Assembly: GCA_016781135.1 (NCBI GenBank)
Contig: JADDQY010000035.1
Coordinates: 17,764-81,763, forward strand
Reading direction: 5' to 3'
Length of the DNA: 64,000 nt
DNA from: Actinomycetota bacterium
Lineage (GTDB): Bacteria > Actinomycetota > Acidimicrobiia > Acidimicrobiales > CADCSY01
Positions 29,561-56,314 of this stretch are shown here, piece after piece; the stretch's first letter is position 1, and every line of letters starts with the position of its first letter. The translations under genes and the position numbers were made by a program. Below the pieces are notes generated by a model, which was given only the letters and a program-made list of their open reading frames with translations, was not told the DNA's origin and did no database searches.

Positions 29561-30058
29561 ATGGATCAGTACCTGCCCCTGGTGGTGATGTTCGTGCTGG
29601 CCGTGGGCTTCGTGGTGCTGAGCATCGGCACCTCGAGGCTCCTGGCTCCCCGGCGGCCGACGCTGGCCAAGCAGGCGCCCTACGAGTGCGGGATCGTCCC
29701 GACTCGTGGACCGGCCCGGCGCTTTCCCGTGCGCTTCTACCTGGTGGCCATGATCTTCATCGTGTTCGACATCGAGATCATCTTCTTGTTCCCATGGGCC
29801 GTGCTGCACCGCCAACTCGGCCTCTACGGTCTGCTGGCGGTCGTGGTGTTCATCGTCCCGTTCTTCTTGTCGTTCCTGTGGGAGGTTGCCGAGGGCGGGC
29901 TCGACTGGGGCCCGATCGCACACCAACGGCCGCTCGGGCTGGCCAACGAGCCCGGCCGCACGACCACCTCGACCGTTCGCCTCGTCGGCCTCGACGGGCG
30001 TGAGCCGGTAGGGGCAGGGGTGGCGACGGGCGAGCAACGAGGCGGGGAGGCGAGCTGA
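29561..30058 (+). CDS. nuoA: NADH-quinone oxidoreductase subunit A (with ~45-aa C-terminal extension)
   Basis: [27 protein letters not shown]. Confidence 0.9.
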
Positions 30059-30621
30059 TGGGCCGGGGCGAGGGTCTCGGCGGGCTCCAGCACAACTTCC
30101 TCACCGGCAACCTCGAGGCCGCCGTCAAGTGGGCCCGGCGCAACAGCATGTGGCCCGCCACCTTCGGCCTGGCCTGCTGCGCGATCGAGATGATGGCCAC
30201 GGGTGCGTCGCACTTCGACCTCAGCCGCTTCGGGATGGAGGTGTTTCGGGCGTCGCCTCGTCAGGCCGACCTCATGATCGTGGCCGGGAGGGTGAGCCAG
30301 AAGATGGCGCCGGTGCTGCGCCAGGTCTACGACCAGATGGTGGAGCCCAAGTGGGTCCTGTCCATGGGGGTGTGTGCTTCCAGCGGAGGGATGTTCAACA
30401 ACTACGCCCTCGTCCAGGGCATCGACCAGGTGGTGCCGGTCGACGTCTACGCACCAGGGTGCCCGCCCAACCCCCAGACGTTGCTGCACTCGATCCTCAC
30501 GCTCCACGAGCTGGTCCGCACCGGCCAGATCCTGCGCCGTCCAGGGACCGGCGCCGGCATCCGAGTCGACGAGCAGGGGGGGGGCGAGCGGGTCCCGGTC
30601 CACGTCGCCACCCCGAGGTAG
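30058..30621 (+). CDS. nuoB: NADH-quinone oxidoreductase subunit B
   Basis: [19 protein letters not shown] and PGCPP (cluster N2 ligands). TGATG overlap with nuoA. Confidence 0.92.
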
Positions 30622-30632: not shown

Positions 30633-31121
30633 ATGGCCGATGTGGAGCTGCGCCACGGCGTTCCCGAGACCCGGGCCCTCGGCCAGGTCGTCCTCCACCC
30701 CCCCCGGGGCGCCTATCGGGACGTGGTCGCCGGGCTGCGCCAGGAGGGGTTCACCATGTGCGTCGACGTCACCGCCGTCGACTACCTCACCCATCCGGGC
30801 CGATCAGGGCTACCCCCGGGGGTGGCACCGGAACGCTTCGAGGTTGTGGTCACACTCCTGTCGTTCGAGCGGCGGGAGCGGCTGCGGCTACGGGTGCAGG
30901 TGCCCGAGCACGATCCCGTGCTGGACTCGCTGTACGACCTTCACCCCAGCAGCGAGGCTCCGGAGCGGGAGGTGTTCGACATGTTCGGCGTCGCCTTCGA
31001 AGGGCACCCCGACCTGACCCGCATCCTCATGCCCGAGGACTGGGAGGGCCACCCCCTGCGCAAGGACTACTCGGTCGGCCGCATCCCGGTGCAGTTCAAG
31101 GCCGCTGGAGCGCCCCGGTGA
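30633..31121 (+). CDS. nuoC: NADH-quinone oxidoreductase subunit C
   Basis: 162 aa from ATG 30633. EREVFDMFGVAFEGHPDLTRIL and EGHPLRKDY. Confidence 0.9.
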   Translation: MADVELRHGVPETRALGQVVLHPPRGAYRDVVAGLRQEGFTMCVDVTAVDYLTHPGRSGLPPGVAPERFEVVVTLLSFERRERLRLRVQVPEHDPVLDSLYDLHPSSEAPEREVFDMFGVAFEGHPDLTRILMPEDWEGHPLRKDYSVGRIPVQFKAAGAPR

Positions 31122-31128
31122 GGCGGCG

Positions 31129-32460
31129 ATGACCAGCACCGAGCGGGTGTACCCGGGGGCGATCACCTCCGAGGGGGCGCAGGAGCTGGCGGCGCGCGGC
31201 GCGTCCACGGCTGCGGAGCTCCTGCGGGAACAGGGCTCGGTTTTGCGCCTGTCCGAGGTGGCGGCCGCCGAGCAGGCGGACCGGGCCGGTCCCGAGGACG
31301 AGACCATGATCATCAACATGGGCCCGCAGCATCCGAGCACCCATGGCGTGCTGCGCGTGATGCTCGAGCTCGAGGGCGAGACGGTGCTGCGCACCAAGCC
31401 AATCATGGGCTACCTGCACACGGGGATGGAGAAGACCGGCGAGGACCTGACCTACCTGCAGGGCGCCACCAACGTCACCCGGATGGACTACGCCAGCCCG
31501 TTCTTCAACGAGCTGGTCTTCTCGCTCGCCACCGAGGCCCTGCTCGAGGTCGACATCCCGCCCCGGGCCACCTGGATCCGGATGCTGATGTGCGAGCTCA
31601 ACCGGATCTCGTCGCACTTCCTGTTCCTCGCCACCAACGGGATGGACCTGGGTGCCATCTCGATGATCCTCTATGGCTGGCGTGAGCGGGACATGGTGCT
31701 GCAGTTCTTCGAGAAGACGACCGGCTTGCGGATGAACCACAACTACGTCCGCCCCGGAGGGGTTGCCGTCGACCTGCCCGATGGCTGGCGCGATGACGTG
31801 CTGCGCCTCCTCGACGCCCTGCCGTCGCGGCTCGAGGAGTACGACGACCTGATGACCGGCCAGCCCATCTGGCGGGGCCGGACCCAGGGGATCGGCCTGC
31901 TCACCCCGGAGGAGGCGGTGGCGCTCGGCGCCACCGGGCCCATCCTGCGCTCCACCGGCGTTCCCTGGGACCTGCGCCGCGACCTGCCCTACCTCGCCTA
32001 CGACCAGGTCGACTTCAACGTGGTGGTGGGCAGCTACGGGGACGTGTTCGACCGCTACGCCATCCGCCTCAACGAGATCCGAGAGTCGATCGACATCGTC
32101 CGCCAGATCGTCGACCGCATGCCCGGAGGCGACTACCGCGTGCAGGACAGGAAGATCACCCCCCCGCCTCGGGCTCGGATCGACGAGTCGATGGAGGCGC
32201 TGATCCACCACTTCAAGATCTTCACGGAGGGCTTCCGGGTGCCCGAGGGCGAGGTCTACGTGGCGGTGGAGTCCCCCCGGGGTGAGTTGGGCTGCTACCT
32301 GGTGTCCGACGGGAGCGGCAAGCCCTACCGCCTCCACATCCGGGGCCCGTCGTTCTACAACCTGCAGACGCTGCCCCACATGATGCGCGGCGGTCTCATC
32401 CCTGACGCCGTGGCCGTCATCTCCTCGGTGGATCCGATCATGGGCGAGGTCGACCGGTGA
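31129..32460 (+). CDS. nuoD: NADH-quinone oxidoreductase subunit D
   Basis: 443 aa. NMGPQHPSTHGVLR, VTRMDYASPF and a C-terminal VDPIMGEVDR. Confidence 0.93.
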   Translation: MTSTERVYPGAITSEGAQELAARGASTAAELLREQGSVLRLSEVAAAEQADRAGPEDETMIINMGPQHPSTHGVLRVMLELEGETVLRTKPIMGYLHTGMEKTGEDLTYLQGATNVTRMDYASPFFNELVFSLATEALLEVDIPPRATWIRMLMCELNRISSHFLFLATNGMDLGAISMILYGWRERDMVLQFFEKTTGLRMNHNYVRPGGVAVDLPDGWRDDVLRLLDALPSRLEEYDDLMTGQPIWRGRTQGIGLLTPEEAVALGATGPILRSTGVPWDLRRDLPYLAYDQVDFNVVVGSYGDVFDRYAIRLNEIRESIDIVRQIVDRMPGGDYRVQDRKITPPPRARIDESMEALIHHFKIFTEGFRVPEGEVYVAVESPRGELGCYLVSDGSGKPYRLHIRGPSFYNLQTLPHMMRGGLIPDAVAVISSVDPIMGEVDR

Positions 32461-33053
32461 GCCGCCTCAGCCCCGATAACGAGGAGCTGGCCCGCACCAT
32501 CATCGGGCGCTATCCCCGCAGCCGCTCGGCGCTCATCCCGTTGCTGCACGTGGCTCAGGAGCAGGAGGGGTGGGTGAGCCGCGACGCCATGGCCCATATC
32601 GCCGAGCTGCTCGGGATCACCCCTGCCGAGGTCCTGGGGACCTGCAGCTTCTACGGGATGTTCAAGCTCGAGCCCGTCGGGCGTTACGTCGTCGGGGTGT
32701 GCACCAACATCTCCTGCCTGCTGCTCGGCGGCGAGGAGCTGCTCGAGCACTGCGAAGCCCGCCTCGGGGTCAAGGCCGGCGCCACCACCGACGACGGGAT
32801 GTTCACGCTGGAAGACGTGGAGTGCATCGCTGCGTGCACCGACGCACCCTGCCTCCAGGTCAACTACCGCTACTTCCTCAACATCACTCACGATCAGGTT
32901 GACGCCCTGTTCGACGACCTGCGGGCCGGCCGGCGCACCGACGAGGTGCCCGTTCACGGCACGCTGACCCGCGTGCGCCAGCACGTCGCCCCGGAGCGGT
33001 GGTCGGGCCACGGCGCCGAGGGCCTCCCTCTCCCGCCCGGCCAGGCGCGCTGA
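32457..33053 (+). CDS. nuoE: NADH-quinone oxidoreductase subunit E
   Basis: 198 aa. 2Fe-2S ligands in VGVCTNISC and CIAACTDAPC. GTGA overlap with nuoD. Confidence 0.9.
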   Translation: MSRLSPDNEELARTIIGRYPRSRSALIPLLHVAQEQEGWVSRDAMAHIAELLGITPAEVLGTCSFYGMFKLEPVGRYVVGVCTNISCLLLGGEELLEHCEARLGVKAGATTDDGMFTLEDVECIAACTDAPCLQVNYRYFLNITHDQVDALFDDLRAGRRTDEVPVHGTLTRVRQHVAPERWSGHGAEGLPLPPGQAR

Positions 33054-34396
33054 TGGCGGTCAGCGACGCCGCCCCCATCATTTCCACCCGCCTTGCCCGC
33101 CCCGACGGCCACACCTTGGCCGGCTACGAGGCGACGAGGGGCTACACCGCCCTGCGCAAGGCGCTGGGCATGGGCCCCGACGCGGTGCTGGAAGAGGTCA
33201 AGGCGGCCAACCTCCAGGGCCGGGGCGGCGCCGGCTTCCCCGCCGGGGCGAAGTGGTCGTTCCTGCCCAAGGACGTCTTTCCCCGCTACTTCGTGGTCAA
33301 CGGCGACGAGAGTGAGCCCGGCACCTCGAAGGACCGTCCGCTCATGGAGCGCGACCCCCACCAGCTCATCGAGGGGCTGCTCATCTCCTGCTTCGCGGTG
33401 CGGGCGGCCCAGGCCTTCATCTACGTGCGGGGCGAGATGGCGCTGGCCCAAGAGCGTCTCGCCACCGCCCTGAACGAGGCCTACGCCGCCGGCTACGTGG
33501 GTCGCGACATCATGGGGTCGGGCTGGTCGCTCGACATCGTGTTGCACTGGGGGGCGGGCGCCTACATCGTCGGCGAGGAGACCGCCCTCATCGAGAGCCT
33601 CGAGGGCCAGCGGGGCATGCCCCGGCTCAAGCCGCCGTTCTTCCCGGCAGCCAAGGGCCTGTACCTGCAGCCAACCGTGGTCAACAACGTCGAGACGCTG
33701 TCGAACATCCCCTGGATCGTCACCCACGGCGGCGCCGCCTTTGCCGCCCTCGGCACCGAGAAGGCGGCGGGCACCCGGCTGTTCGCCCTGTCGGGTCACG
33801 TGCGCCGCCCCGGGGTCTACGAGGTCGAGATGGGCACCACCACCTTCCGAGACCTGGTGGAGGCCCCGGTGTACGGCGGCGGCATCCGTCACGGCAACAA
33901 GCTCAAGGCGTTCATCCCCGGGGGGGCGTCGGCGCCGTGGTTCTACCCCGAGCAGCTCGACTTGGCGCTGGACGCCAGCGTGGTCGGCCCCGCCGGGTCC
34001 ATGCTCGGCTCGGGCGCGGTGGTGATCATGGACGACACCACCTGCGCGGTGCGGGCGGCGTGGCGGCTGGTCCGGTTCTTCGCCCACGAGTCGTGTGGCA
34101 AGTGCACCCCCTGCCGGGAGGGGGGGGCGTGGCTGGAGAAGATCCTGCGCCGCATCCTCGACGGCCACGGCCGGGAGGACGACATCGAGCTCCTGCTCGA
34201 CGTGGGCGACAACATCAGCCCGGGACCCTTCCCCCACCCGCCGCTCGACGGCGTAGCGGCCGTACCGTTCCCGTTCAAGCAGACCACGATCTGCCCCCTC
34301 GGGCCCTCGGCGGTGTCGCCCATCCACTCCTCGATCCTGCGTTTTCGAGACGAGTACCTGATCCACATCAAAGACGGCAGGTGCCACCTTGGCTGA
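33053..34396 (+). CDS. nuoF: NADH-quinone oxidoreductase subunit F
   Basis: 447 aa from ATG 33053 (TGATG overlap). GRGGAGFP (FMN), GAGAYIVGEETALIESLEG, and ESCGKCTPCREG (cluster N3). Confidence 0.93.
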   Translation: MAVSDAAPIISTRLARPDGHTLAGYEATRGYTALRKALGMGPDAVLEEVKAANLQGRGGAGFPAGAKWSFLPKDVFPRYFVVNGDESEPGTSKDRPLMERDPHQLIEGLLISCFAVRAAQAFIYVRGEMALAQERLATALNEAYAAGYVGRDIMGSGWSLDIVLHWGAGAYIVGEETALIESLEGQRGMPRLKPPFFPAAKGLYLQPTVVNNVETLSNIPWIVTHGGAAFAALGTEKAAGTRLFALSGHVRRPGVYEVEMGTTTFRDLVEAPVYGGGIRHGNKLKAFIPGGASAPWFYPEQLDLALDASVVGPAGSMLGSGAVVIMDDTTCAVRAAWRLVRFFAHESCGKCTPCREGGAWLEKILRRILDGHGREDDIELLLDVGDNISPGPFPHPPLDGVAAVPFPFKQTTICPLGPSAVSPIHSSILRFRDEYLIHIKDGRCHLG

Positions 34397-37295
34397 GCAG
34401 ACCGAGCAGGCGACCAAAACCACGGTCACCGTGGTCCTCGACGGGCGGGAGATCGAGGCCAATCCCGGCGAGCTGGTGATCGCCGCCGCCGAGCGCAACG
34501 GCGTCTACATCCCCCGCTTCTGCTACCACCCTCGGATGCGCCCGGTGGGCATGTGCCGCATGTGCATCGTCGAGATCGACTCGGGTCGGGGGCCCGCCCT
34601 GCAGCCGTCGTGCATGCTGCCCGTCGCCGAGGGGATGAAGGTCGACACCCAGTCGGCCCTCACCAAGAAGGCCCAGGACGGGGTGCTCGAGTTCCTCCTC
34701 ATCAACCATCCCCTCGACTGCCCGGTGTGCGACAAGGGCGGGGAGTGCCCCCTCCAGGACCAGACGCTGGCCTTCGGTCCCGGGGAGACCCGCTTCGTCG
34801 AGGAGAAGCGCCACTTCGAGAAGCCCATCCCGATCAGCGAGCTGGTCTACCTCGACCGCGAGCGCTGCGTCCTGTGCGACCGCTGCACCCGCTTCGCCAA
34901 GGAGGTGGCCGGCGACCCGTTGATCTCCTTCATCGACCGAGGGAACCACACCCAGGTCAACACCTTCCCCGACGACCCCTTCTCCTCCTACTTCAGCGGC
35001 AACACCGTGCAGTTGTGCCCCGTGGGGGCGCTGCTGGCCCGGCCCTACCGCTTCCGGGCCCGGCCCTGGGACCTCGACCAGGTCGAGTCCACGTGCACCG
35101 CCTGTGCCTTTGGGTGCCGAGTGGCGCTGCAGTCGTCGGCCAACCGTCTGGTACGCAAGCTCGGCGTCGACGTCGACCCGGTCAACCAGGGATGGACGTG
35201 CGACAAGGGCCGTTTCGACTTCGAGGCGGTCAACAGCGACGACCGCCTGGGCACCCCGCTGGTGCGCTCCACCGCCGGGCCGGTCAACGGGAACGGGGGC
35301 AGCCCGGTCGACCTCGCGCCAACGTCGTGGTCCGAGGCGTGGGACCGCGTCATCGAGGGCATCGGGCGGGCCCGCCTGCGACCCGGTCCTGAGTCGATCG
35401 CCGTGCTCGGTGGGGCTCGCCTCACCAACGAGGACGCCTACGCCTGGTCGAAGCTCGCCCGCAGCGTGCTCGCCACCGACTCGGTCGATGCCCAGTTGGG
35501 CGACGGGCTGCCCGCCGAGGTCGTGGTCGGCCTGCCCCGGGCCTCGATCGACGCCGCCTGTGCCGCCGAGACCGTCCTTCTGCTGGCGCCCGATCTGAAG
35601 GAGGAGCTGCCAGTGCTCTACCTGCGCCTGCGCCAAGCGGTGGTGGACGGGGGCCTCAACCTCGTCGAGGTCAGCCCGGTGGCGACCGGGATGACCCCCT
35701 ACGCCACGGTGTCGGTGCGCTACCGGCCGGGCGAGGCCGCCGAGGTGGTGCGAGCGCTGGTCTCGGGTGACGGCGGTGTCGGCGCCGGCGGTCAGTCCGA
35801 TGCCATGCGCCGGGCGGGCGAGCTGCTGCGCAAGGGCTCGTTGGTGTGCGTGCTCGGCCGCCCGTCGCTGGCCGAGCGGGCCCAGCCGATCGCCGCCGCC
35901 GCCGCCGCCGTGCTCGACGCGTTGCCAGCCACGACGTTCCTGTCGGCGCTGCGTCGGGCCAACGTCCACGGTGCCCTCGACATGGGCTTGGCGCCGGGCA
36001 TCCTCCCGGGAAGGGTGTCGCTCGACGAGGGCCGACGCTGGTTCGCCGAGGCCTGGCCGGCGGTCCCCGCCAGCCGGGGCCTCGACGCCGAGGGCATTAT
36101 CGCCGCCGCCGCCGAGGGCCGGGTGGCGTGCCTGATCCTCCTCGGCGCCGACCCGCTGGCCGACTTCCCCGACCGCTCGCTCGCCCGGCGGGCCCTCGCC
36201 GGGGCCGGCTTCGTGATCGCCGTCGACTCCTTCCTCACCGCCTCGTCCCGCCGGGCCGACGTGGTACTGCCGGCTGCGACCTACGGCGAGAAGGGGGGCA
36301 CGACCACGAACATCGAGGGCCGGGTCAGCCGGCTCCACCAGAAGATCACCGCGCCGGGGACGGCCCGCCCCGACTGGATGATCGCCGCCGAGCTGGCCTG
36401 GCGGCTGGGAGGCGACCTCGGCTTCGGGTCGGAGGACGAGGTCTGGGACGAGATCGAGCGCCTGGCACCCTCGCACCACGGACTCACCCGAGCCCGCCTG
36501 GCCTCGGCCGAGGGGTTCGACGGGCTGCTCGCCGGCGGGGTGGCCGAGGTCGGCGATCACGACGCCCCTCCCACCATGTCCGGAGCCGATGCCCCTGGCA
36601 TCCAGGGCCCGCTGGGCCACACCAAGGACGACAGCCTGGCCACGACCGGGATGGGCCATGACGTCCACCCCGATCCCCAGGCAGGGGCGGAGCCGGCGGG
36701 GGCGCCGGCGGGGGTGGCCAGGGCCGAGGCGGCGGCTGGCGCCGGCGGATCGGGCTACGCCGATGGCGACACGCCGGGGGAGGTGGAGCGCGACGCTGAC
36801 GCCGTGGAGCGGTCGGTGGAGGCCGAGGGCAGTGGCCGCTCGGGTGCCTTCCGGCCCTCGGGGGGTGGCGGCGATCGGGGCTCCACCCCCCAGCGCCCGT
36901 CCCCGCTGCGCTGGTCGTTGGTCGAGCCGCCGCCCTCGCCCCCGCCGCTCGACCGCTACTCGCTGCGCCTGGTGTCGGCCCGAAAGCTCTACGACGACGG
37001 GACCCTGGTCCAGAACTCGCCCTCGCTGGTGCCGCTGGCCCCCGGGGCTCGCATCCGCGTCAACCCCGCCGACCTGTCGCCCCTCGGGGTGGTCGCGGGC
37101 AGCAAGCTCCAGGTGAGCAGCAGCCAGGGTCGGGTGGTGCTGGAGGCGGCGCCCGACCCCGCCGTGCCCCAGGGCAGCGCCGTGGTCGCCTTCAACCAGC
37201 CCGGACCAGGAGCCGCCGATCTCATCGACTCGACCCAGCCGGTCACCGAGGTGCGCATCGAGACGCTCAGCGGGGCGTCGGGACCTACGCCATGA
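34389..37295 (+). CDS. nuoG: NADH-quinone oxidoreductase subunit G (968 aa, with low-complexity insertion)
   Basis: N-terminal 2Fe-2S/4Fe-4S motifs CYHPRMRPVGMCRMC, HPLDCPVCDKGGECPLQ and CVLCDRCTRF. Molybdopterin-like body. A roughly 130-aa Ala/Gly/Glu/Pro-rich insertion at about 36550..36950. Confidence 0.9.
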   Translation: MAEQTEQATKTTVTVVLDGREIEANPGELVIAAAERNGVYIPRFCYHPRMRPVGMCRMCIVEIDSGRGPALQPSCMLPVAEGMKVDTQSALTKKAQDGVLEFLLINHPLDCPVCDKGGECPLQDQTLAFGPGETRFVEEKRHFEKPIPISELVYLDRERCVLCDRCTRFAKEVAGDPLISFIDRGNHTQVNTFPDDPFSSYFSGNTVQLCPVGALLARPYRFRARPWDLDQVESTCTACAFGCRVALQSSANRLVRKLGVDVDPVNQGWTCDKGRFDFEAVNSDDRLGTPLVRSTAGPVNGNGGSPVDLAPTSWSEAWDRVIEGIGRARLRPGPESIAVLGGARLTNEDAYAWSKLARSVLATDSVDAQLGDGLPAEVVVGLPRASIDAACAAETVLLLAPDLKEELPVLYLRLRQAVVDGGLNLVEVSPVATGMTPYATVSVRYRPGEAAEVVRALVSGDGGVGAGGQSDAMRRAGELLRKGSLVCVLGRPSLAERAQPIAAAAAAVLDALPATTFLSALRRANVHGALDMGLAPGILPGRVSLDEGRRWFAEAWPAVPASRGLDAEGIIAAAAEGRVACLILLGADPLADFPDRSLARRALAGAGFVIAVDSFLTASSRRADVVLPAATYGEKGGTTTNIEGRVSRLHQKITAPGTARPDWMIAAELAWRLGGDLGFGSEDEVWDEIERLAPSHHGLTRARLASAEGFDGLLAGGVAEVGDHDAPPTMSGADAPGIQGPLGHTKDDSLATTGMGHDVHPDPQAGAEPAGAPAGVARAEAAAGAGGSGYADGDTPGEVERDADAVERSVEAEGSGRSGAFRPSGGGGDRGSTPQRPSPLRWSLVEPPPSPPPLDRYSLRLVSARKLYDDGTLVQNSPSLVPLAPGARIRVNPADLSPLGVVAGSKLQVSSSQGRVVLEAAPDPAVPQGSAVVAFNQPGPGAADLIDSTQPVTEVRIETLSGASGPTP

Positions 37296-38494
37296 GCGGC
37301 GACCCGCTGTTCGCCGGGGGCGTCGACTGGGTCGTCGTGGCCTTCGTAGTGGTCAAGGCGCTGATCGGGTTCACGATCGTCATGGTCGGCGTCATCTTCA
37401 TGATCTGGTTCGAGCGCAAGGTCATCGCCGACATGCAGAACCGGATCGGTCCCAACCGGGCCGGTCGTTGGGGCCTGGCCCAGACCCTGGCCGACGGCAT
37501 CAAGCTGATCTTCAAGGAGGACCTGTGGCCTGACAAGGCCGACAAGCCGGTGTTCCGCCTCGCCCCCTACCTCTCGGTGGCTCCGGCGTTCCTCACCTTC
37601 ACCATCGTGCCCATCGGCGGGGTGTTCAGCGGCGGCAACGACGGAGCCGTCGAGCTGTTCGGCCGGCGCACCTGGCTCCAGGTGGCCGACCCCCCGGTGG
37701 GGGTGCTGTTCCTGCTGGCCATGTCTTCGATCGCCGTCTACGGCATCATGCTGGCCGGTTGGTCATCGGGCTCGAAGTACCCGCTGCTCGGTTCGGTACG
37801 GGCGTCGGCTCAAATGGTGAGCTACGAGGCCGCGCTCGGGCTGTCGGTGGTGGCGGTGGTGCTCCTCAGCGGCTCGCTGTCGACCCATGACATCGTCGCC
37901 GCCCAGGCGGGAAGCATCCTCGACTGGAACGTCATCGCCACCGCTGGCGTGCCCTTCGCCATCTTCTGCGTGGCCGCCACGGCCGAGCTCAACCGCCCCC
38001 CGTTCGACCTGGTGGAGGCCGAGCAGGAGCTGGTGGGCGGGTTCCACACCGAGTACTCCTCGATCCGCTTCGGCATGTTCTACCTGGCCGAGTTCATGAA
38101 CACCATCACCATGTCGGCCATCATCGTGACGCTGTTCCTCGGGGGACCGGCCGGGCCGGTGTTGTTCGGGCCGCCCCTCATCTGGGGGATCCTCTGGTTC
38201 ACGCTCAAGGTGCTGGTGTTCCTGTTCACCTTCGTGTGGCTGCGGGCCACGCTGCCCCGCTACCGCTACGACCAGCTCATGGACCTCGGGTGGAAGCGCC
38301 TGATCCCCCTGGCGCTGGGATGGCTGCTGGTGATCGGCGCTCAGCGCATCGGCCTCGACCGGGGCTGGGACCGCTTCGTCACCGGTGCCGCCAGCCTGGT
38401 CGTGCTCACGCTGGCGGCCGTGGCGCTGTTCGGGGCGATCAGGGTGGCCGAGCGCCGTCGCCAGAGCGACCAGTTCGGCGAGGTCGTGGCGTGA
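37292..38494 (+). CDS. nuoH: NADH-quinone oxidoreductase subunit H
   Basis: 400 aa. ERKVIADMQNRIGPNR, GWSSGSKYPLLG, RPPFDLVEAEQELVGG, and YRYDQLM. ATGA overlap with nuoG. Confidence 0.93.
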   Translation: MSGDPLFAGGVDWVVVAFVVVKALIGFTIVMVGVIFMIWFERKVIADMQNRIGPNRAGRWGLAQTLADGIKLIFKEDLWPDKADKPVFRLAPYLSVAPAFLTFTIVPIGGVFSGGNDGAVELFGRRTWLQVADPPVGVLFLLAMSSIAVYGIMLAGWSSGSKYPLLGSVRASAQMVSYEAALGLSVVAVVLLSGSLSTHDIVAAQAGSILDWNVIATAGVPFAIFCVAATAELNRPPFDLVEAEQELVGGFHTEYSSIRFGMFYLAEFMNTITMSAIIVTLFLGGPAGPVLFGPPLIWGILWFTLKVLVFLFTFVWLRATLPRYRYDQLMDLGWKRLIPLALGWLLVIGAQRIGLDRGWDRFVTGAASLVVLTLAAVALFGAIRVAERRRQSDQFGEVVA

Positions 38495-38739
38495 TGCTTC
38501 GTCCTCGTGCGCTCGCTTGGCGGTTTCGGCCTCGCTCGCGCGCGGCGCTCGCTCCGTTCGGCCGGCCCGTCGGCGCTGCGGTGGACGGGCGAAGCCTGTT
38601 GACCTGCGCCGTGGCCACGCCTGGCGGCCTCCGCCCGCTGGGGCACCAGCCACATCCAGGTTGCCTGCAGCGGCGGTCGTGGCCGGTGGCCGTGCCCCCT
38701 CGCGGCCGGTGGGTCGATGCCGGGAAGGGGCAGGCCTGA
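38494..38739 (+). CDS. candidate relay small ORF (81 codons) bridging nuoH and nuoI
   Basis: ATG 38494 overlaps the nuoH TGA (38492..38494). The frame is open to TGA 38737..38739, which overlaps the nuoI ATG (38739). The product is Arg/Pro-rich and hand-counted GC3 is about 79%. Coding status is unproven. Confidence 0.3.
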   Translation: MLRPRALAWRFRPRSRAALAPFGRPVGAAVDGRSLLTCAVATPGGLRPLGHQPHPGCLQRRSWPVAVPPRGRWVDAGKGQA

Positions 38740-39443
38740 TGGGCTACTTCGACGGGTTCCTCGTCACGCTCAAGCAGATCTTCTCCGACCGGGTCACGTC
38801 GGAGTACCCGAAGGAGAAGCGGCCCAAGCCGCTGCGCCACCACGGTCGCCACGTCCTCAACCGCTACGAGGACGGCATGGAGAAGTGCATCGGCTGCGAG
38901 CTGTGCGCCGGCGTGTGCCCGGCTCGGTGCATCTACGTACGCGGCGCCGACAACCCCCCCGAGGCGCCGGTCTCCCCCGGGGAGCGTTGGGGGTTCGTCT
39001 ACGAGATCAACTACCTGCGCTGCATCCACTGCGACCTGTGCGTCGAGGCGTGCCCCACCGAGGCCATCACCGAGTCGAAGCTGTTCGAGTTCTCCTTCAC
39101 CAACCGTGAGGACGCGATCTACACCCGCTCCGAGCTCCTGGTCGGGGACGACGGCAAGCCCAAGAAGCTCCCGTGGGAGGACTGGCGTGGCGGCGACGAC
39201 GACCACACCTCGGCGTGGATGCGGGCCACCTCACCAAACGGGCAGGCCGCCTACGAGGGAAGGGTGCAGTGGTCGGGCGAGCTCGGCTACGGCGTGCGGG
39301 CGCCCGAGGCGGGCCAGTCCGGCGACCCGGAGCTGGCCCCGCCAACCGACGTGGAGGCCACCGCGAAGGGACCGCTCTACGCCGGCTCCGACACGGCTCC
39401 GGGTGAGCGCGCGAGCGACCACCGCCACGTCGAGGCCAGCTGA
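38739..39443 (+). CDS. nuoI: NADH-quinone oxidoreductase subunit I (with ~90-aa C-terminal extension)
   Basis: 234 aa from ATG 38739. CIGCELCAGVCP and CIHCDLCVEACP. SD GGGAAGGGG upstream. The 5' part of the track ORF is discounted. Confidence 0.9.
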   Translation: MGYFDGFLVTLKQIFSDRVTSEYPKEKRPKPLRHHGRHVLNRYEDGMEKCIGCELCAGVCPARCIYVRGADNPPEAPVSPGERWGFVYEINYLRCIHCDLCVEACPTEAITESKLFEFSFTNREDAIYTRSELLVGDDGKPKKLPWEDWRGGDDDHTSAWMRATSPNGQAAYEGRVQWSGELGYGVRAPEAGQSGDPELAPPTDVEATAKGPLYAGSDTAPGERASDHRHVEAS

Positions 39444-40018
39444 TGGTCGACACGATCGTCTTCGCCGTCGCCGCCGTGGTGATCCTCGCCGGAGCCGTCG
39501 GCGTGGTGCTCTCGCGCAACCCGGTGCACTCGGCGCTGATGCTGGTCATGACCCTGTTCGGGATGGCGGTGCTGTTCGTCGCCCAGGACGCGCACTTCCT
39601 GGCCGCGGTGCAGGTCATCGTCTACGCCGGGGCGATCGTCGTGCTGTTCTTGTTCGTGATCATGCTGCTCGGCGTCGACACCGCCGAGAACCTGTCCACC
39701 GAGCCCCTCGCCGGGCAGCGCCCCGCTGCCGGGCTGGTGGCCCTGGCCAGCGTGGGCCTGCTGGCCGTGCTGGCGGTTCGGGCGGTGCAGGTGAGCACCG
39801 GGTCCCGCTCGGTCAGCGCCCCCCTCGAGGGCGAGCCCTCCAACATCGCCACCCTCGCCGAGGTGCTGTTCACCGACTACGTGTTCGCCTTCGAGGTCAC
39901 CTCGGTGCTGCTGGTGATCGCCGTGGTCGGTGCCGTGGTGATGGCTCGCAGGCCCCGCCCCGACCCCGAAGGCGACGAGCTCGGCGTGGAGCGCCACGCC
40001 GAGGCCGAGCTGGCGTGA
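39443..40018 (+). CDS. nuoJ: NADH-quinone oxidoreductase subunit J
   Basis: 191 aa. [12 protein letters not shown] and [25 protein letters not shown] overlap with nuoI. Confidence 0.9.
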
Positions 40019-40025
40019 GGCGACG

Positions 40026-40331
40026 GTGACCGTCGACGAGACCTGGTACTTGGTGCTCTCGGCGCTGCTGTTCACGATCGGCGCCGCCGGGCTGCTGGTG
40101 CGGCGCAACCCCCTCGTGATGTTCATGTGCGTCGAGCTGATGCTCAACGCCGTGAACCTGACCTTCGTCACGTTCTCCAACGTGTTGAACGACGTCTCCG
40201 GCCAGGTGGTGGTCTTCTTCGTGCTCGTGGTGGCGGCTGCCGAGGTCGTCGTCGGCCTGGGCATCATCGTGGCCATCCTGCGCCGGCGCCCCGACGCCAC
40301 CGCCGACGACGTCTCGATGCTCCGAGGCTGA
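40026..40331 (+). CDS. nuoK: NADH-quinone oxidoreductase subunit K
   Basis: 101 aa. [31 protein letters not shown]. Confidence 0.9.
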
Positions 40332-40520
40332 GCGTTCGGCGCGGCCTGGACCTGCCATGCGGCTCAACCTGCGGCTGTCCCGCCTTGCCCAGGGAGTTCT
40401 TCGACATGTTCACCGACGCCCCCGATCGACCCGACCTGCGGCTCGGGCGATTCCCGGCACGCCCGGATATGCCGAGTTCACCGCGCCGGGCAGTGAGCCG
40501 AAGCCGGTGATGGGTGACTG

Positions 40521-41284
40521 ATGAGCGTCGTTCCTCCGGCCCCTGATCCACCCACCGAGGGGTGGTGGCTCGACCCCGACAACCCCCGCCTCATCCGCTA
40601 CCACGACGGGCAGCGCTGGACCGACCACGTGGGCCGCTCCAGCTCACCCCGCCCCGGCCTGCCCGCCCACCAGGCGTTCTTCCCGCTCGGCGCCGGTCCC
40701 GAGGGCATCCCCACCGGCTCGCCCTTGGCGCCCGGCAGCGGTCGCTACCTGTCGAAGTACGCGGTGGGGCCTCGGTTGCCTGATCATCGTCGGGCTGCTG
40801 GTGGGCGCCTACGGCATCGGCGCGTACCAGGCGGGCGCTCTCAGCTTGGCCGCGGCGGCGCCGATGATCGTCGTCGGTGGGCTGTTGTTCTTCGGCCCCA
40901 TGGTCGTCGCCTTCGTCTCTGCCTGGCGAGCCGGTATCCGCCCTCCCGGGTTCTCACGCAACGCCAGCTTCTTCGAGATCCAGATCGGGGTCATGATCTT
41001 CGGGTCCCTGATGAGCGCCGTGCTGTGGGAAGTGTCCGAGGCCCTGAGATCGGGCAGCGGTCCGGCACTGGCGGTGAGAGGGGTGTCGATCCTCGTCGGT
41101 TCCATCGCCGTCGGGATCTACGCCATTCCCACGGTCTGGTCGGCGGTTCGCAACCCCGCACCACCTGCGGGGATGGGACCGCTGGCTGTGGGCAGTCGGT
41201 GCCCTGGCAATGTCGCTGTTGTTCATCCTGTGGGTGACGGGCGCGCTTCCCCAGGGGCGACAAGTACGACTGGTGCCACGCTGA
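40521..41284 (+). pseudogene. DUF2510-domain membrane protein gene, apparently disrupted by two +1 frame changes
   Basis: In frame 0 from ATG 40521, GWWLDPDNPRLIRYHDGQRWTDHV is a DUF2510-type motif. GC3 collapses after about 40770, where frame +1 takes over (LGCLIIVGLLVGAYGIG..., 4 TM-like helices). After about 41160 a further +1 frame carries WDRWLWAVGALAMSLLFILWVTGALPQG and ends at TGA 41282..41284. Confidence 0.5.
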
Positions 41285-41484
41285 TGGCCCAGGTGGTGCT
41301 GTGGGCCCTGCCCGGCGAATGGGAGCAGGTGGAGCTGTTCGCCCCGGACCTCGACGACCGGATCGCCACCCGAGTCCGGTCCAACGCCGCCGACTCAGGG
41401 TCAGACCAGGCAACGCCTCCTCCATCCTCCCCTGAGCGCCCGGTGCCGGCAGCGGCCCTCCACCGGCGAGCGGCGCTGCGGTAG
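41284..41484 (+). CDS. small hypothetical ORF (66 aa) preceding nuoL
   Basis: ATG 41284 overlaps TGA 41282..41284. Product MAQVVLWALPGEWEQVELFAPDLDDRIATRV.... Hand-counted GC3 about 83%. Ends 12 nt before nuoL. Confidence 0.3.
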   Translation: MAQVVLWALPGEWEQVELFAPDLDDRIATRVRSNAADSGSDQATPPPSSPERPVPAAALHRRAALR

Positions 41485-44981: not shown

Positions 44982-45000
44982 GGACGCATCGCTGCGGGGG

Positions 45001-46610: not shown

Positions 46611-46976
46611 GTGTCTGAGTTCCTGCGTGCCTACCTGACCGTGGCCGTGTTCGCCGGAGCCGCCGGCCTGCTGGTGCTGGCGTTGTCGACGGTGGGACGA
46701 CTCCTTCGCCCGTCCCGCCCCACTCGTGAGAAGGCCATCTCCTATGAGAGCGGCGTCGACCCGGTCGGGCCGGGGTTCGGCCAGAGCCAAGTCCGCTACT
46801 ACATCTTCGCCCTGCTGTTCGTGCTGTTCGACGTGGAGGCGGTCTACATCTTCCCCTGGGCGCTCCGGCTGGAGGAGTACGGTGGCTTCGGGCTGGTGGA
46901 AATGGCCATCTTCATCGTCATACTCGCTCTCGGACTGGTGTACGCCTGGCGGAAGGGAGTGCTGCGGTGGGTCTGA
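46611..46976 (+). CDS. nuoA2: NADH-quinone oxidoreductase subunit A, second copy
   Basis: 121 aa. [30 protein letters not shown]. Confidence 0.9.
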
Positions 46977-47467
46977 TCGAGCGGGGGAAGCTGCCCAAGC
47001 CCCTGAGCCACCTTCTCGGGCTCAGCCGTAGCTACTCGCTGTGGGTCTACCAGTGGGGGCTGGCCTGCTGCGCCATCGAGATGGGAGCGTGCTTCGGCTC
47101 GCCCCGCTACGACGTGATGCGCCTCGGCGTGATCCCGTTCCCCGTCAGCCCTCGCCAAGCCGACCTGGTCGTGGTCTCGGGCACGGTCACCGACAAGCTG
47201 GCTCCGGCCCTCCGCCGCCTCTACGAGCAGATGCCCGAGCCCAAGTACGTCATCTCCATGGGCAGCTGCGCGAACTCCGGTGGGCCCTACTGGGACTCCT
47301 ACTCGGTCACCAAAGGCGTCGACCAGATCATTCCCGTCGACGTGTACGTGCCCGGATGCCCGCCTCGGCCCGAAGCCCTGCTGGAGGGCATCGTGATGCT
47401 CCAGCAGCGCATCCGCGACGAGGACATGGCCGAGCGCTGGAAGGGAGACCCGATTGTCGTCGGCTGA
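46967..47467 (+). CDS. nuoB2: NADH-quinone oxidoreductase subunit B, second copy
   Basis: 166 aa. [24 protein letters not shown]. Confidence 0.9.
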
Positions 47468-48614: not shown

Positions 48615-48630
48615 GGGCCACGCCGTGAGC

Positions 48631-49797
48631 ATGCTCACCGAACACCAGCAGCGGGCCTATATCGGCGGCCAGGCCGCCGAGGCCCGGGTCAACCTCGAGC
48701 TCGAGACCGACGGGATGACCCTCAACATCGGGCCCCAGCACCCGGCGACCCACGGCACGCTGCGCATCATCACCCGCCTCGACGGCGAGCAGGTGATCTC
48801 CGCCGAGCCGGTGATGGGCTACATGCACCGGGGCTACGAGAAGCTCACCGAGGTCCGTACGTACCCCCAGATCAACACCCTGATCAACCGCATCGACTGG
48901 CTCAGCAGCTTCGCCAACGAGGTGCCGTTCATCCTCGCCGCCGAGCGGCTCATGGAGATCGAGGCGCCACCCCGGGCGCAGTGGATCCGCACGATTTTCT
49001 TCGAGCTCAGCCGGATCGCCAACATCACCCTGTTCCTGGGCGAGATGGGCGTGCAGCTGGGCGCGATCACCGCGGTCTTCTACGCCTTCCGCGATCGGGA
49101 GCACGTGCTCAACCAGATCGAGGCGGCGACCGGGGGCCGCTTCCACCCGAACTACGACCGCATCGGGGGGCTGAAGGAAGACCTGCCCAAGGGGTGGGTG
49201 GCCGAGACCAAGTCGGTGATGGCCAAGGTGCGCGACTTCTGCGACGAGATGGAGACCTTGGTCGGCACCAACGAGATCTTCGAGACCCGCACCCGGGGCA
49301 TCGGGGTCATCCCCGTCGAGGTGGCCCTCGGCTACGGGCTGTCGGGGGCGAACATCCGGGCCTCCGGCCTCGACTGGGACCTGCGTCGCGACAGCGACAC
49401 CCCTCTGGCCTGGAAGGAGGTCGACTGGAAGGTCTGGACCCACCCCGACGGCGACAGCTTCGCCCGCTACTGGGTCCGCCTCCAAGAGACCCGGGAGGCG
49501 ACGCTGATCGTCGACCAGCTGCTCGACGGCCTGCCGGCGGGGCCGATCATGGCCAAGGTGCCCCGCATCATCAAGGTGCCGCCGGGGGAGGCGTGGGTCG
49601 CCACCGAGAACCCGCTCGGCGAGATGGGCTACTACCTCGTCAGCAAGGGCGACCTGGGCCCGTTCCGGGTCAAGATCCGCACGCCCTCGTTCAACAACAT
49701 CTCGATCGTCCCCTGGGTGCTCAAGGGCGTCTACGTTCCCGACGTGATCACCATCCTGGCCAGCCTCTACTTCATCCTCGGCGACATCGACCGATGA
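48631..49797 (+). CDS. nuoD2: NADH-quinone oxidoreductase subunit D, second copy
   Basis: 388 aa from ATG 48631 (or GTG 48625). NIGPQHPATHGTLR, INRIDWLSSF and a C-terminal [10 protein letters not shown]. Confidence 0.9.
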   Translation: MLTEHQQRAYIGGQAAEARVNLELETDGMTLNIGPQHPATHGTLRIITRLDGEQVISAEPVMGYMHRGYEKLTEVRTYPQINTLINRIDWLSSFANEVPFILAAERLMEIEAPPRAQWIRTIFFELSRIANITLFLGEMGVQLGAITAVFYAFRDREHVLNQIEAATGGRFHPNYDRIGGLKEDLPKGWVAETKSVMAKVRDFCDEMETLVGTNEIFETRTRGIGVIPVEVALGYGLSGANIRASGLDWDLRRDSDTPLAWKEVDWKVWTHPDGDSFARYWVRLQETREATLIVDQLLDGLPAGPIMAKVPRIIKVPPGEAWVATENPLGEMGYYLVSKGDLGPFRVKIRTPSFNNISIVPWVLKGVYVPDVITILASLYFILGDIDR

Positions 49798-49967
49798 GAG
49801 AAAACAGCGCGCCGAAGGCGCACGTTTGGCCTTTCTCGGCGGTCGAGCGGAACGGGGCAGCTGGACGGATGGCACCAAGGGGAGGGGCCCGCCCCGAGCG
49901 CCAGCGAGGGGTGAGAGGGGTCCCGCGTGATGACAGGACCCGTCCAGCGGTGGGGGTGGCAACGTGA
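49794..49967 (+). CDS. candidate relay small ORF (57 codons) bridging nuoD2 and nuoH2
   Basis: ATG 49794 forms an ATGA overlap with the nuoD2 stop (49795..49797). The frame is open to TGA 49965..49967, a GTGA overlap with the nuoH2 GTG at 49964. Product [57 protein letters not shown]. Confidence 0.3.
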
Positions 49968-51615: not shown

Positions 51616-52134
51616 TTGATTGCCCAGAACATCGCCTTCACCATCCTCGCCGCGGTGGCCACGCTGGCCGCCGTGCGAGTGGTGACCACCCGCAACGTCG
51701 TCCACGCCGCCCTCTACCTGGTGATGGTGCTGGCCAGCGTGGGTGCGCTCTACGTGCTGCTGGTCGCCGAGTTCGTGGCCGCGGTGCAGATCCTGATCTA
51801 CATCGGCGCCATCGTCGTACTGTTCTTGTTCGGGATCATGCTCACCCGGGCCACGATCGGCGCCGACGCCGGCCTCGACAACGACCAGCGGTGGATCGCG
51901 GCGGTCACCGGGCTGTTCCTGCTCGGAGTGCTCACCTTCGTGCTGGTCGACGCCTTCGGCGACGACCGCCTGCCCAGTCTCGAGAACATGAGCCGTGAGG
52001 CGCTCACGGCCGAGCGAGGCACCGGCGCCGTGGGCGACGCCATCTTCTCCACCTATCTCGTCCCCTTCGAGGTGGTCTCGGTGCTCCTGCTCGCCGCCCT
52101 GGTCGGCGCCATCGTCCTGGCACGGAGGGAGTGA
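51616..52134 (+). CDS. nuoJ2: NADH-quinone oxidoreductase subunit J, second copy
   Basis: 172 aa. [36 protein letters not shown] start inferred by alignment with nuoJ. Confidence 0.85.
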   Translation: MIAQNIAFTILAAVATLAAVRVVTTRNVVHAALYLVMVLASVGALYVLLVAEFVAAVQILIYIGAIVVLFLFGIMLTRATIGADAGLDNDQRWIAAVTGLFLLGVLTFVLVDAFGDDRLPSLENMSREALTAERGTGAVGDAIFSTYLVPFEVVSVLLLAALVGAIVLARRE

Positions 52135-52214
52135 TGTCGTCGTTCGCTGCGCTCTCGTGCCTGACCGCCGACGTCCGACGGCCGCTGGCCACGCCGGTCG
52201 GGGAAGGAACCTGA
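52134..52214 (+). CDS. candidate relay small ORF (26 codons) bridging nuoJ2 and nuoK2
   Basis: ATG 52134 overlaps the nuoJ2 TGA (52132..52134). TGA 52212..52214 overlaps the nuoK2 ATG (52214). Product MSSFAALSCLTADVRRPLATPVGEGT. Confidence 0.3.
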   Translation: MSSFAALSCLTADVRRPLATPVGEGT

Positions 52215-54746: not shown

Positions 54747-56273
54747 ATGGACGCCCTGGATGACCTGGCGCTGACCGCGGCGGTGTTCCTTCCCCTTGTG
54801 GGAGCGGTGGTGATGCTGCTCACTCCCCGCCGGCAGGAGACCGTCCACAAGGTGATCGCCTTGCTCACCACCCTGGCGACCTTCGCCGTCGGGGTCTACG
54901 TGCTCGTGCGGTTCGACTACCGCCGGGCCGACCTGTTGCAGTTCAACGTGAACGCGTCGTGGATCGACGTCATCAACAGCCGGTACATCCTCGGCGTCGA
55001 CGGCATCTCCCTGCCGCTTCTGATCCTGTCGATGTTCGTGTGCGTGCTGGTGGTGATCTACAGCTGGAACCACTTCCCCGAGCCCCACAACCCCAAGGCG
55101 TTCCTCCTCCTCGTCCTGGTGCTGGAGACAGGGATGAACGGGACCTTCGTGGCCCAGGACCTGATCCTGTTCTTCGTGTTCTTCGAGGTCGTGCTGTTGC
55201 CGATGTACTTCATGATCGGGGTGTGGGGCGGTGAGCAGCGCCAGTACGCCGCCATCAAGTTCTTCCTGTTCACCCTGTTCGGATCGGCGCTCATGATCCT
55301 CAGCTTCCTGGCCCTGTTCTTCCGCGGTGGTCAGACCTTCGCCATCCAAGAGCTCATTGCCGTGGCGTCCGACACCATCCCCCGCTCGACCCAGCTGCTG
55401 ATCTTCGGCGGCCTGTTCATGGGTTTCGCCATCAAGGTCCCGATGTTCCCGTTCCACACCTGGCTGCCTGACGCCCACACCCAGGCCCCGACCCAGGGCT
55501 CGGTGATCCTCGCCGCCATCCTGCTGAAGCTCGGCACCTACGGGTTCGTGCGCATCGCCATCCCCATCCTCCCCGAGGCTGCCCGGGTGTGGGCCCCGTG
55601 GATCGGTGGCCTCGCCGTCATCGGCATCATCTACGGCGCTCTCGGATGCCTGGCCCAGAGCGACATGAAGCGGCTCATCGCCTTCTCGTCGGTGGCCCAC
55701 ATGGGCTACGTCATGCTTGGCATCGCCACCCTCACCGACTTCGGGATCAACGCCGCCGTCTTCGGGATGGTCGCCCACGGCCTCATCACCGGGATGCTCT
55801 TCTTCGTGGCCGGATCGGTGAAGGACCGGTTCCACACGCTCGAGCTCTCCCGCCTCGGTGGCCTGCTGATCCAGGCGCCGCGCATGGGCTGGATCCTCGG
55901 CTTCTGCGCCATGGCCTCGCTCGGCCTGCCCGGCCTCGCCGGGTTCTGGGGCGAGTTCCCGGCGATCCTCGCCGCCTACAACCCCGCTCCAGGGCTGTCC
56001 CGGGAGCTGTTCCGGGTGTACATGGTGGTCGCCGCCATCGGCACCGTCTTCGCCGCCGGCTACCTGCTGTGGATGCTCCAGCGAGCCGCCTTCGGCACCC
56101 CCACCAAGGAGTTCGCCGGCCACCCCATCCCCGACATGCGCTGGCCCGAGTACCTGGCCTGGACGCCGATGCTCCTGCTCATCGTGGTGCTGGGCATCTT
56201 CCCCAACCTGTTGTTCGGGTTGACCAACCGCGCCGTCGACACTGCACTCGCTGCCTTCGGCGGGGGTGGCTGA
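54747..56273 (+). CDS. nuoM2: NADH-quinone oxidoreductase subunit M, second copy
   Basis: 508 aa from ATG 54747. FEVVLLPMYFMIGVWG, KVPMFPFHTWLPDAHTQAPTQGSVILAAI and LIAFSSVAHMG. Confidence 0.9.
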   Translation: MDALDDLALTAAVFLPLVGAVVMLLTPRRQETVHKVIALLTTLATFAVGVYVLVRFDYRRADLLQFNVNASWIDVINSRYILGVDGISLPLLILSMFVCVLVVIYSWNHFPEPHNPKAFLLLVLVLETGMNGTFVAQDLILFFVFFEVVLLPMYFMIGVWGGEQRQYAAIKFFLFTLFGSALMILSFLALFFRGGQTFAIQELIAVASDTIPRSTQLLIFGGLFMGFAIKVPMFPFHTWLPDAHTQAPTQGSVILAAILLKLGTYGFVRIAIPILPEAARVWAPWIGGLAVIGIIYGALGCLAQSDMKRLIAFSSVAHMGYVMLGIATLTDFGINAAVFGMVAHGLITGMLFFVAGSVKDRFHTLELSRLGGLLIQAPRMGWILGFCAMASLGLPGLAGFWGEFPAILAAYNPAPGLSRELFRVYMVVAAIGTVFAAGYLLWMLQRAAFGTPTKEFAGHPIPDMRWPEYLAWTPMLLLIVVLGIFPNLLFGLTNRAVDTALAAFGGGG

Positions 56274-56314
56274 TGACTCGTTTTCTCCCGCCTGATCCGG
56301 CCGAGGGTGACTGA
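56273..56314 (+). CDS. candidate relay mini-ORF (13 codons) between nuoM2 and nuoN2
   Basis: ATG 56273 overlaps the nuoM2 TGA (56271..56273). Product MTRFLPPDPAEGD. TGA 56312..56314 lies 1 nt before the in-frame nuoN2 GTG at 56316 and inside the alternative start at 56307. Confidence 0.25.
   Translation: MTRFLPPDPAEGD

Follow-up and report, generated by a model that had tools for sequence, protein, structure and literature searches.

Respiratory complex I requires its subunits in matched amounts, and its genes are normally chained to each other by overlapping stop and start codons. This raises the question of how the chain is maintained between nuoH and nuoI in a 64-kb stretch of Acidimicrobiales DNA (64,000 nucleotides of contig JADDQY010000035.1, analysed as a whole and referred to here as the window), in which the two genes are separated by a spacer of 244 nt. 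The spacer is spanned exactly by a small open reading frame (sORF) that overlaps the nuoH stop codon at one end and the nuoI start codon at the other. On balance, we consider it probable that the 244 nt are an insertion bridged by a non-coding frame, which would act as a termination-reinitiation relay and keep nuoI coupled to nuoH. The bridging architecture as a class is non-random and strongly enriched among related operons.

The anatomy of the junction can be described precisely (see the table below). The nuoH stop codon and the sORF ATG (38494-38496) have one A in common, and an in-frame GTG at 38491 overlaps the same stop codon as GTGA. At the other end, the sORF TGA (38737-38739) and the nuoI ATG at 38739 again have one A in common. 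The open reading frames (ORFs) are co-oriented, overlap by 1 or 4 nt and carry a Shine-Dalgarno (SD)-like motif inside the upstream ORF, which is characteristic of coupling by stop/start overlap. The frame coordinates, both TGATG overlaps and the peptide reported in the initial annotation are exact, and the overlaps of 1-4 nt listed there for nuoA/B (30056..30060), nuoD/E (32457..32460), nuoE/F (33051..33055), nuoG/H (37292..37295) and nuoI/J (39441..39445) are all present. The annotated distance of 245 nt between nuoH and nuoI reflects a real gap, but corresponds to the period between the two TGATG motifs, whereas 244 nt lie between stop and start. Since the spacer has the same length in four independent assemblies of metagenome-assembled genomes (MAGs) of the species, it is not an assembly artefact.

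The sequences that flank the spacer can be compared with those of relatives. The C-terminus of NuoH aligns with that of its relatives (...QFGEVVA* in the window versus ...EFGELSTATERVG* in the related locus L001), and the GAGGT motif upstream of the sORF occupies the SD position of the ancestral nuoH/nuoI overlap, similar to the junction ...GCGAGGTGGTGTAGTG of locus L002. The duplex of GAGGT with the anti-SD sequence, which was assumed because the window carries no 16S rRNA gene, has a calculated energy of -8.4 kcal/mol (background mean -4.5, standard deviation 3.0; 13% of random sites reach -8). The motif GGGAAGGGG in front of nuoI resembles the SD sequence of relatives with overlapping junctions, such as GGAGAGGGTGGGCTGATG in L001. 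Two other ways of reading the junction were considered and rejected. An N-terminally extended NuoI, for which the frame is open with starts at 38709, 38679, 38661, 38517 and 38385, has the worst codon score (-0.78), and the relatives start at MGY. A programmed -1 frameshift of NuoH into the sORF lacks a slippery heptamer at GAG GTC GTG GCG TGA.

The origin of the spacer is indicated by its distribution. Genome and metagenome collections yielded 152 related loci in which both nuoH and nuoI could be located. In 86 of these 152 junctions, including those of the two closest relatives, L001 (87% protein identity) and L002 (86%), the nuoH stop codon has one base in common with the nuoI start codon, and it is for this reason that the ancestral junction is considered to be an overlap. 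Most of the other junctions encode a slightly longer NuoI N-terminus, which again starts on the nuoH stop codon. When a chain is accepted wherever a start codon lies no more than 3 nt to either side of the final stop-codon base (-3 to +3), direct coupling is seen in 129 of 153 junctions. L001, L002 and most other relatives lack the spacer, which, as judged from these sequences, is an insertion into the ancestral 1-nt overlap that occurred in the lineage of this Acidimicrobiales species, in line with the initial annotation, which had referred to an inserted spacer. At either end, the insertion has the appearance of the ancestral junction, with an SD-like motif followed by TGATG. Exact protein matches were confined to strains that are 99.8-100% identical, and scans of the genome and metagenome collections revealed no locus of intermediate distance that carries the spacer; the nearest loci beyond the species have a NuoI identity of 86-87%.

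Evidence on the architecture as a class comes from those nuoH-nuoI junctions that are separated. A junction was defined as separated when its true gap amounts to 8 nt or more, and as bridged when one ORF overlaps or abuts both genes. With the window included, 15 of the 18 separated junctions are bridged, across gaps of 10, 13, 16, 28, 35, 40, 52, 55, 56 (twice), 61, 103, 106, 187-190 and 244 nt. The unbridged junctions are those of L010, L027 and L131, and L027 carries a strong GAGGAGG motif. The bridging peptides are unrelated between lineages and the lengths of the spacers differ; the bridged spacers are therefore regarded as independent events, with the exception of L039 and L048. The lack of relationship between the peptides also implies that the act of translation is what is kept. 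Complete shuffling of the spacers predicts that 1.0 of 18 junctions is bridged (p 7e-22), while keeping both ends and randomising the phase increases the expectation to 3.6 (p 2e-10), or to 5.4 if in-frame insertions are assumed to be hidden as N-terminal extensions (p 8e-8). Even a flat probability of 0.5 per event is exceeded (14 of 17 bridged, p 0.006).

The two loci that do have a common spacer, L039 and L048, are informative for a different reason. Their 56-nt spacers are only ~62% identical (~38% of the bases are changed) versus 92% identity in the nuoI DNA. Length and open frame are kept, and the frame is delimited by an ATGA start overlap in one and a GTGA in the other, and by an abutting TAG versus TAA stop codon. 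The two nuo operons of the window contain eight spacers with a length of 20 nt or more, and four of these are bridged (H/I, D2/H2, J2/K2 and M2/N2), compared to 0.64 expected (p ~4e-4). This supports the rough argument of the initial annotation that four recurrences are unlikely to arise by chance, and the three additional frames it had placed at 49794, 52134 and 56273 are real.

How such frames arise can be seen in some of the relatives. In L056 (3939-4001) and L150 (1652-1705), the spacer has clearly arisen by tandem duplication of the nuoH/nuoI junction: the mini-ORF opens with a duplicated NuoI N-terminus (MGYFQGFAVT... and MGIV..., respectively) and closes at a duplicated nuoH stop codon. 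Tandem duplication of the junction is one route to doubly overlapping bridging frames. In other cases, repeated sequences are involved. The nuoH/I spacer of L004 (3811-4000) and the nuoD2/H2 spacer of L176 (3640-3780) have 137 nt in common (77%, E 5e-21), and the nuoH/I spacer of L113 (1141-1246) matches the nuoJ/K spacer of L102 (2079-2157), where the element is read in a different frame and both frames bridge. The occurrence of short GC-rich repeats at differing complex I junctions suggests the presence of mobile elements in Acidimicrobiia that resemble mycobacterial interspersed repetitive units (MIRUs) and target stop/start junctions.

The frame that spans the nuoH-nuoI spacer does not look protein-coding. 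The G+C content of the sORF at the three codon positions is 0.81/0.69/0.79, compared to ~0.67/0.46/0.93 for the nuo genes of the window (third-position range 0.89-0.96), which agrees with the hand-counted third-position value of about 79% in the initial annotation. The log-likelihood ratio of its codon usage is -0.36 per codon, while gene segments of 81 codons have an average of +0.70 and a minimum of +0.13. By G+C content per codon position, no spacer frame on either strand shows a coding pattern; antisense genes were also considered and discarded, since the open minus-strand frames have third-position values of 0.71-0.80 and no coding signature. The sORF product is rich in Arg, Pro, Gly, Ala and Trp, a composition typical of non-coding high-GC DNA; it matched no family in a Pfam search, and the sORF was left uncalled by gene callers. 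Between the window and strain L084, seven credible substitutions are found in 7.2 kb. Three of them fall into the 244-nt spacer, which makes it the fastest-evolving stretch of the locus between strains. In the sORF frame, one is synonymous and two are non-conservative (P>H and P>R), and no new stop codon is created. Thus, the peptide is without visible constraint, and these data fit the view, already expressed in the initial annotation, that translating the frame may matter more than its product.

These features can be combined into a model in which the spacer is crossed by translating ribosomes. A ribosome that ends nuoH at the UGA 38492-38494 would re-initiate at the overlapping AUG or GUG, assisted by the retained GAGG motif, and would then translate the 81 codons, thereby melting a very stable GC-rich RNA and keeping this stretch covered. 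Following termination at the UGA 38737-38739, it would re-initiate at the overlapping nuoI AUG, with the help of GGGAAGGGG. In such a model, the insertion would in effect turn one ordinary overlap into two successive ones; NuoI synthesis would stay coupled to NuoH synthesis and the peptide would be a by-product. We infer both the translation of the sORF and the dependence of nuoI on it. The relay proposed in the initial annotation is favored by the derived nature of the spacer, the non-coding frame, the enrichment of the class and an architecture that is kept while the sequence drifts, but it is borderline at this individual locus, and the idea as such is not new.

Several alternatives assign a different role to the spacer. 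The possibility that the sORF encodes a functional protein of 81 residues, e.g., an accessory subunit of complex I, would agree with its co-orientation and tight coupling to two complex I genes and with a frame that is intact in four assemblies. It is close to refuted by the absence of the sORF in every other species surveyed, together with the missing codon bias, Pfam match and gene call, the non-coding-type composition and the two non-conservative changes out of three between strains. It is also improbable, if less so, that a non-coding element such as a structured RNA, an internal promoter, a processing or stabilizer site or a decayed mobile repeat is the reason for the gap and that the open frame is secondary. 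Such elements are present elsewhere in the clade, as exemplified by the repeats of L004/L176 and L113/L102 and by a conserved hairpin in the nuoD2-nuoH2 spacer. In the nuoH-nuoI spacer, however, no promoter-like or terminator-like site was found in a scan, Tandem Repeats Finder detected no tandem repeat between 38300 and 38900, and Rfam gave no match at the gathering score anywhere in the window. The spacer does not fold more stably than shuffled sequences (minimum free energy z = -0.64; -156 kcal/mol for 281 nt), and the only further copies detected in a search of the window and of 1.2 Mb of related loci are the conspecific ones at the same site. Copy number or length variation was not seen among the four assemblies. 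The rapid evolution of the spacer also argues against such an element.

A similarly improbable explanation is that the sORF is a relic, left over from a NuoH that once had a longer tail or from a frameshift. In this case, the sORF would be the former nuoH frame, which reached the TGATG at nuoI until a frameshift further upstream gave rise to the present, earlier stop codon, and the overlapping GTG/ATG would be incidental. The sORF indeed uses the -1 frame relative to nuoH, which has no stop codon from 38236 onwards, the terminal codons ahead of the second TGATG (GGGAAGGGGCAGGCCTGATGGGCTAC) are similar to the end of nuoH in L001 (GGAGAGGGTGGGCTGATGGGCTAC), and the length of the C-terminal NuoH tail varies among relatives. 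On the other hand, the tails of the closest relatives are only 0-6 residues longer and not 81, the stretch has no codon bias, and L001 and L002 already show a NuoH that ends as in the window without a spacer. A relic would explain the phase of the end, yet it predicts bridging in only about one third of the events. Local alignments of the spacer with the 300 nt at the 3' end of nuoH and the 300 nt at the 5' end of nuoI score no better than those of shuffled sequences, of which 118 of 300 and 168 of 300, respectively, reach at least the same score, and only the last ~20 nt of the spacer resemble the nuoH end. The spacer could be an old and decayed tandem duplication of the junction.

The remaining alternative, a neutral by-product, is rather unlikely, but deserves closer consideration. 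It assumes that the TGATG ends derive from junction or target-site duplication, that the frame is open by composition, that nuoI uses its own SD sequence and that the sORF is useless even if it is translated. The spacer consists of 96 G, 91 C, 42 T and 15 A (77% G+C), and because A contributes only 6%, five of its six frames are stop-free (at least five open frames are obtained in only 6.8% of shuffles). This skew could stem from the donor DNA or from selection against stop codons. When ATG and TGA are fixed and the interior is shuffled, the 80 codons stay open in 48% of the trials. Complete shuffling of the spacer between unchanged flanking genes yields a bridging chain in 4.5% of the trials; when two bases are kept at each end and the phase is randomised, this increases to 22%. 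The shuffling that the initial annotation had suggested as a check therefore gives a divided answer, with a clear enrichment of the class and a borderline result for the nuoH-nuoI locus alone. The tandem duplications of L056 and L150 create both ends automatically, and junctions with a strong SD sequence and no relay exist, such as nuoH2/nuoI2 with GAGAGGAGGAA at -14.8 kcal/mol.

Several of these observations at the same time weigh against the relay. The openness of the frame alone says little, the locus by itself is compatible with chance (P 0.045-0.22), and both TGATG ends could be inherited mechanically via junction or target-site duplication. The SD-like motif of nuoI (-9.3 kcal/mol) would allow de novo initiation, and two serial reinitiation steps would be expected to lose ribosomes. 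Conservation of the spacer phase was compared only among strains that are 99.8% identical. In addition, four window spacers are unbridged, i.e., K/orfX (469 nt), I2/J2 (120 nt), H2/I2 (23 nt) and L2/M2 (28 nt), and the nuoD2/nuoH2 spacers of L167/168, L170 and L176, which are 193-277 nt long, have no bridging frame and carry AGGAG before the ATG. Nonetheless, a neutral origin does not account for the correct phase and open frame in 15 of 18 separated junctions, for which its most generous versions predict 3.6-9 (p 2e-10 to 0.006), for the excess within the window, or for L039 and L048, which keep length, start and stop despite extensive change. It is for these reasons that a neutral origin fits the nuoH-nuoI locus but not the class.

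The proposed relay is embedded in one of two neighboring complex I operons. The window has a G+C content of 71% and is identical in sequence to contig JAGELD010000011.1 of assembly GCA_017884145.1 (L081); its nearest relatives in public collections are Acidimicrobiales MAGs. The first operon is complete, while the second comprises 11 genes of a complex I-like system and lacks the genes for E, F and G. It is also conserved in relatives, where it is followed by a Methyltransf_28 gene. NuoC2 has an apparent N-terminal extension of ~200 residues without a family match.

Table. Features of the nuoH-nuoI junction and other bridging frames, with positions in the window
Feature	Position	Strand	Remarks
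First complex I operon	~29.5-46.5 kb		complete nuoA-N
Mini-relay nuoC/nuoD	31118..31132	+	4 codons (GTGA...ATGA) across a 7-nt gap; chain search
nuoH	37292..38494	+	400 aa, PF00146 NADHdh (called in the identical contig L081); upstream gene, termination would feed the proposed relay
SD-like GAGGT	38480..38484	+	~10 nt before the sORF ATG; from sequence
First stop/start overlap, GTGATG	38491..38496	+	nuoH TGA 38492-38494 overlaps in-frame GTG 38491 and sORF ATG 38494
Bridging sORF, nuoH/nuoI	38494..38739	+	81 sense codons and TGA; from translation; covers the 244-nt spacer 38495-38738
SD-like GGGAAGGGG	38722..38730	+	8 nt before the nuoI ATG; duplex -9.3 kcal/mol
Second stop/start overlap, TGATG	38737..38741	+	sORF TGA 38737-38739 and nuoI ATG
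nuoI	38739..39443	+	234 aa; start MGYFDGF is the start conserved in relatives
Mini-relay nuoJ/nuoK	40015-40029		chain search
Mini-relay nuoM/nuoN	44978-45010		chain search
Second operon	46611-57821		nuoA2 B2 C2 D2 H2 I2 J2 K2 L2 M2 N2, without E, F, G
Mini-relay nuoC2/nuoD2	48611-48628		chain search
Second bridging sORF, nuoD2/nuoH2	49794..49967	+	57 codons; ATGA overlap at start, GTGA at end
Third bridging sORF, nuoJ2/nuoK2	52134..52214	+	26 codons; TGATG at both ends
Fourth bridging sORF, nuoM2/nuoN2	56273..56314	+	13 codons; TGATG at start; stop 1 nt before GTG 56316, or overlaps GTG 56307

The mini-relays found by the chain search span such short distances that they are weak evidence by themselves. 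The three longer frames of the second operon can be followed in its closest relative, L165 (98% NuoK2 identity), in which all three are kept. The D2/H2 spacer of L165 has 199 nt and is longer than that of the window by 33 nt, a multiple of three; its peptide has drifted and the frame is still bridging. The J2/K2 relay (79 nt) and the M2/N2 relay are also present. L173 has short relays at D2/H2 (28 nt) and at J2/K2 (55 nt, unrelated), while J2/K2 is a direct overlap in other relatives. Together with the unbridged junctions described above, this shows that separated junctions are served either by a relay or by a strong independent ribosome-binding site.

Other features of the second operon and its surroundings were noted. 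The core of the nuoD2-nuoH2 spacer (49868-49962) is conserved in five lineages with 75-96% identity (counterparts L165:3604-3698, L167:3791-3890, L170:3826-3922 and L176:3803-3902) and is predicted to form a hairpin of 33 pairs, five of them with compensatory changes, whether or not a bridging ORF is present. This hairpin could be an element of the repetitive extragenic palindrome (REP) type or a structured RNA. The 120-nt spacer between nuoI2 and nuoJ2 (51496-51619), which is 82% conserved in L165, harbours an open frame whose stop codon overlaps the TTG start of nuoJ2 as TTGA. The earliest start codon of this frame is found about midway through the spacer, so that this 'half relay' is not fed by the nuoI2 stop codon. 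In the first operon, nuoG (968 aa) contains a Gly/Ala/Pro/Glu-rich low-complexity stretch at 36600-36900 with a local G+C content of up to 0.79-0.83, which looks like a lineage-specific insertion within the gene. Behind nuoK, an unbridged 469-nt spacer is followed by an ORF of 227 amino acids (40801-41484) without a Pfam match, located ahead of nuoL (region 40332-41484). In the conspecific strain L082, ~300 bp are missing here (window 40739-41040) and are replaced by ~100 bp that do not align. This change removes the start of the 227-aa ORF and leaves a call of 66 aa, and thus the ORF may not be a real gene or may not be essential.

At the nuoH-nuoI junctions of this group, inserted DNA that breaks the chain of overlapping genes is almost always spanned by a throw-away frame whose phase re-establishes an overlap at both ends. 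Provided that the relay operates as proposed, it would explain how insertions are tolerated within essential operons, and it would define a class of translated ORFs with an irrelevant product. Such a class would matter for the annotation of small ORFs and for ribosome profiling (Ribo-seq) in high-GC bacteria, and its members would provide natural constructs for determining the distance limits of termination-reinitiation. We further suggest, with some hesitation, that in Acidimicrobiia, and perhaps in high-GC Actinomycetota, the overlaps of multi-subunit operons are recurrent targets of small insertions, i.e., tandem junction duplications and MIRU-like mobile repeats, which would survive essentially only if they are 'translationally transparent', meaning that an open frame in phase links the upstream stop to the downstream start. 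Relay ORFs would then be a general and selectable class of translated sequence that does not code for peptides, and nuo operons would offer natural independent replicates of 8 to 245 nt for relay distance and efficiency.

The junction can be compared with several known systems. In overlapping gene pairs (Huber et al. 2019, PMC6728339; 2023, PMC10666635), gaps of ~20 nt nearly abolish the coupling by termination-reinitiation, and overlaps are enriched among the subunits of heteromeric complexes (PMC10666635). The -1 (TGATG) and -4 (NTGA) overlaps and the enrichment in heteromeric complexes are common to these pairs and to the junction described here, and the strong distance dependence makes a bare gap of 244 nt incompatible with coupling. 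The pairs differ in that both partners are real genes, whereas in the window a non-coding-like frame lies in between and two successive reinitiations would be needed.

In engineered 'bicistronic designs', a short ORF that terminates at the start codon of the target gene supplies this gene with ribosomes and eliminates effects of structure. As proposed for the nuoH-nuoI sORF, its only role is the delivery of ribosomes and the unfolding of the mRNA, and its peptide is irrelevant. Unlike a natural intercistronic bridge, these designs are engineered, short and located at the 5' end of the transcript. Such synthetic leader-cistron or bicistronic design cassettes are mentioned in PMC12548453. A natural counterpart is the upstream ORF (uORF) of PPE2 in Mycobacterium tuberculosis, which has an AUGA overlap and serves PPE2 as an indispensable relay (Kipkorir et al. 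2024, PMC11260477). Here, too, an out-of-frame short ORF has a stop codon that overlaps the downstream start; PPE2 expression needs the translation of the uORF and the tight overlap, and uPPE2 is termed a relay by its authors. Different from the nuoH-nuoI sORF, uPPE2 is located in a 5' leader, has its own SD sequence, is under riboswitch control and is not fed by the termination of an upstream gene. In addition, PPE2 lacks an SD sequence while nuoI has one, and the uPPE2 relay was shown experimentally, whereas the nuoH-nuoI relay is one that we infer.

The closest parallel in terms of origin is provided by the MIRUs. According to the account of Supply et al. (1997) in PMC12548453, small ORFs of this type occur between mycobacterial operon genes and were first described in the senX3-regX3 intercistronic region. 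As outlined in the same source, MIRU ORFs are coupled to the adjacent gene, which has been interpreted as a means for the insertion to be retained while expression is hardly affected (PMC12548453). In both cases, additional DNA lies between operon genes of Actinomycetota, the ends of its ORF overlap the flanking genes, and dispersed repeats are found at the nuo junctions of related loci. The 244-nt spacer differs by its host class, Acidimicrobiia, by being much longer than a MIRU unit of 40-100 bp, and by having no second copy in the window and 1.2 Mb of related loci, no tandem units and no length variation between strains. Thus, the relay principle is already documented in mycobacteria, and the nuoH-nuoI junction, as read here, is a further example in another class of Actinomycetota. 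What is gained is breadth and quantification, not a novel mechanism; a possibly new aspect is to have shown quantitatively that, at one and the same junction, insertions of independent origin are bridged in nearly every case.

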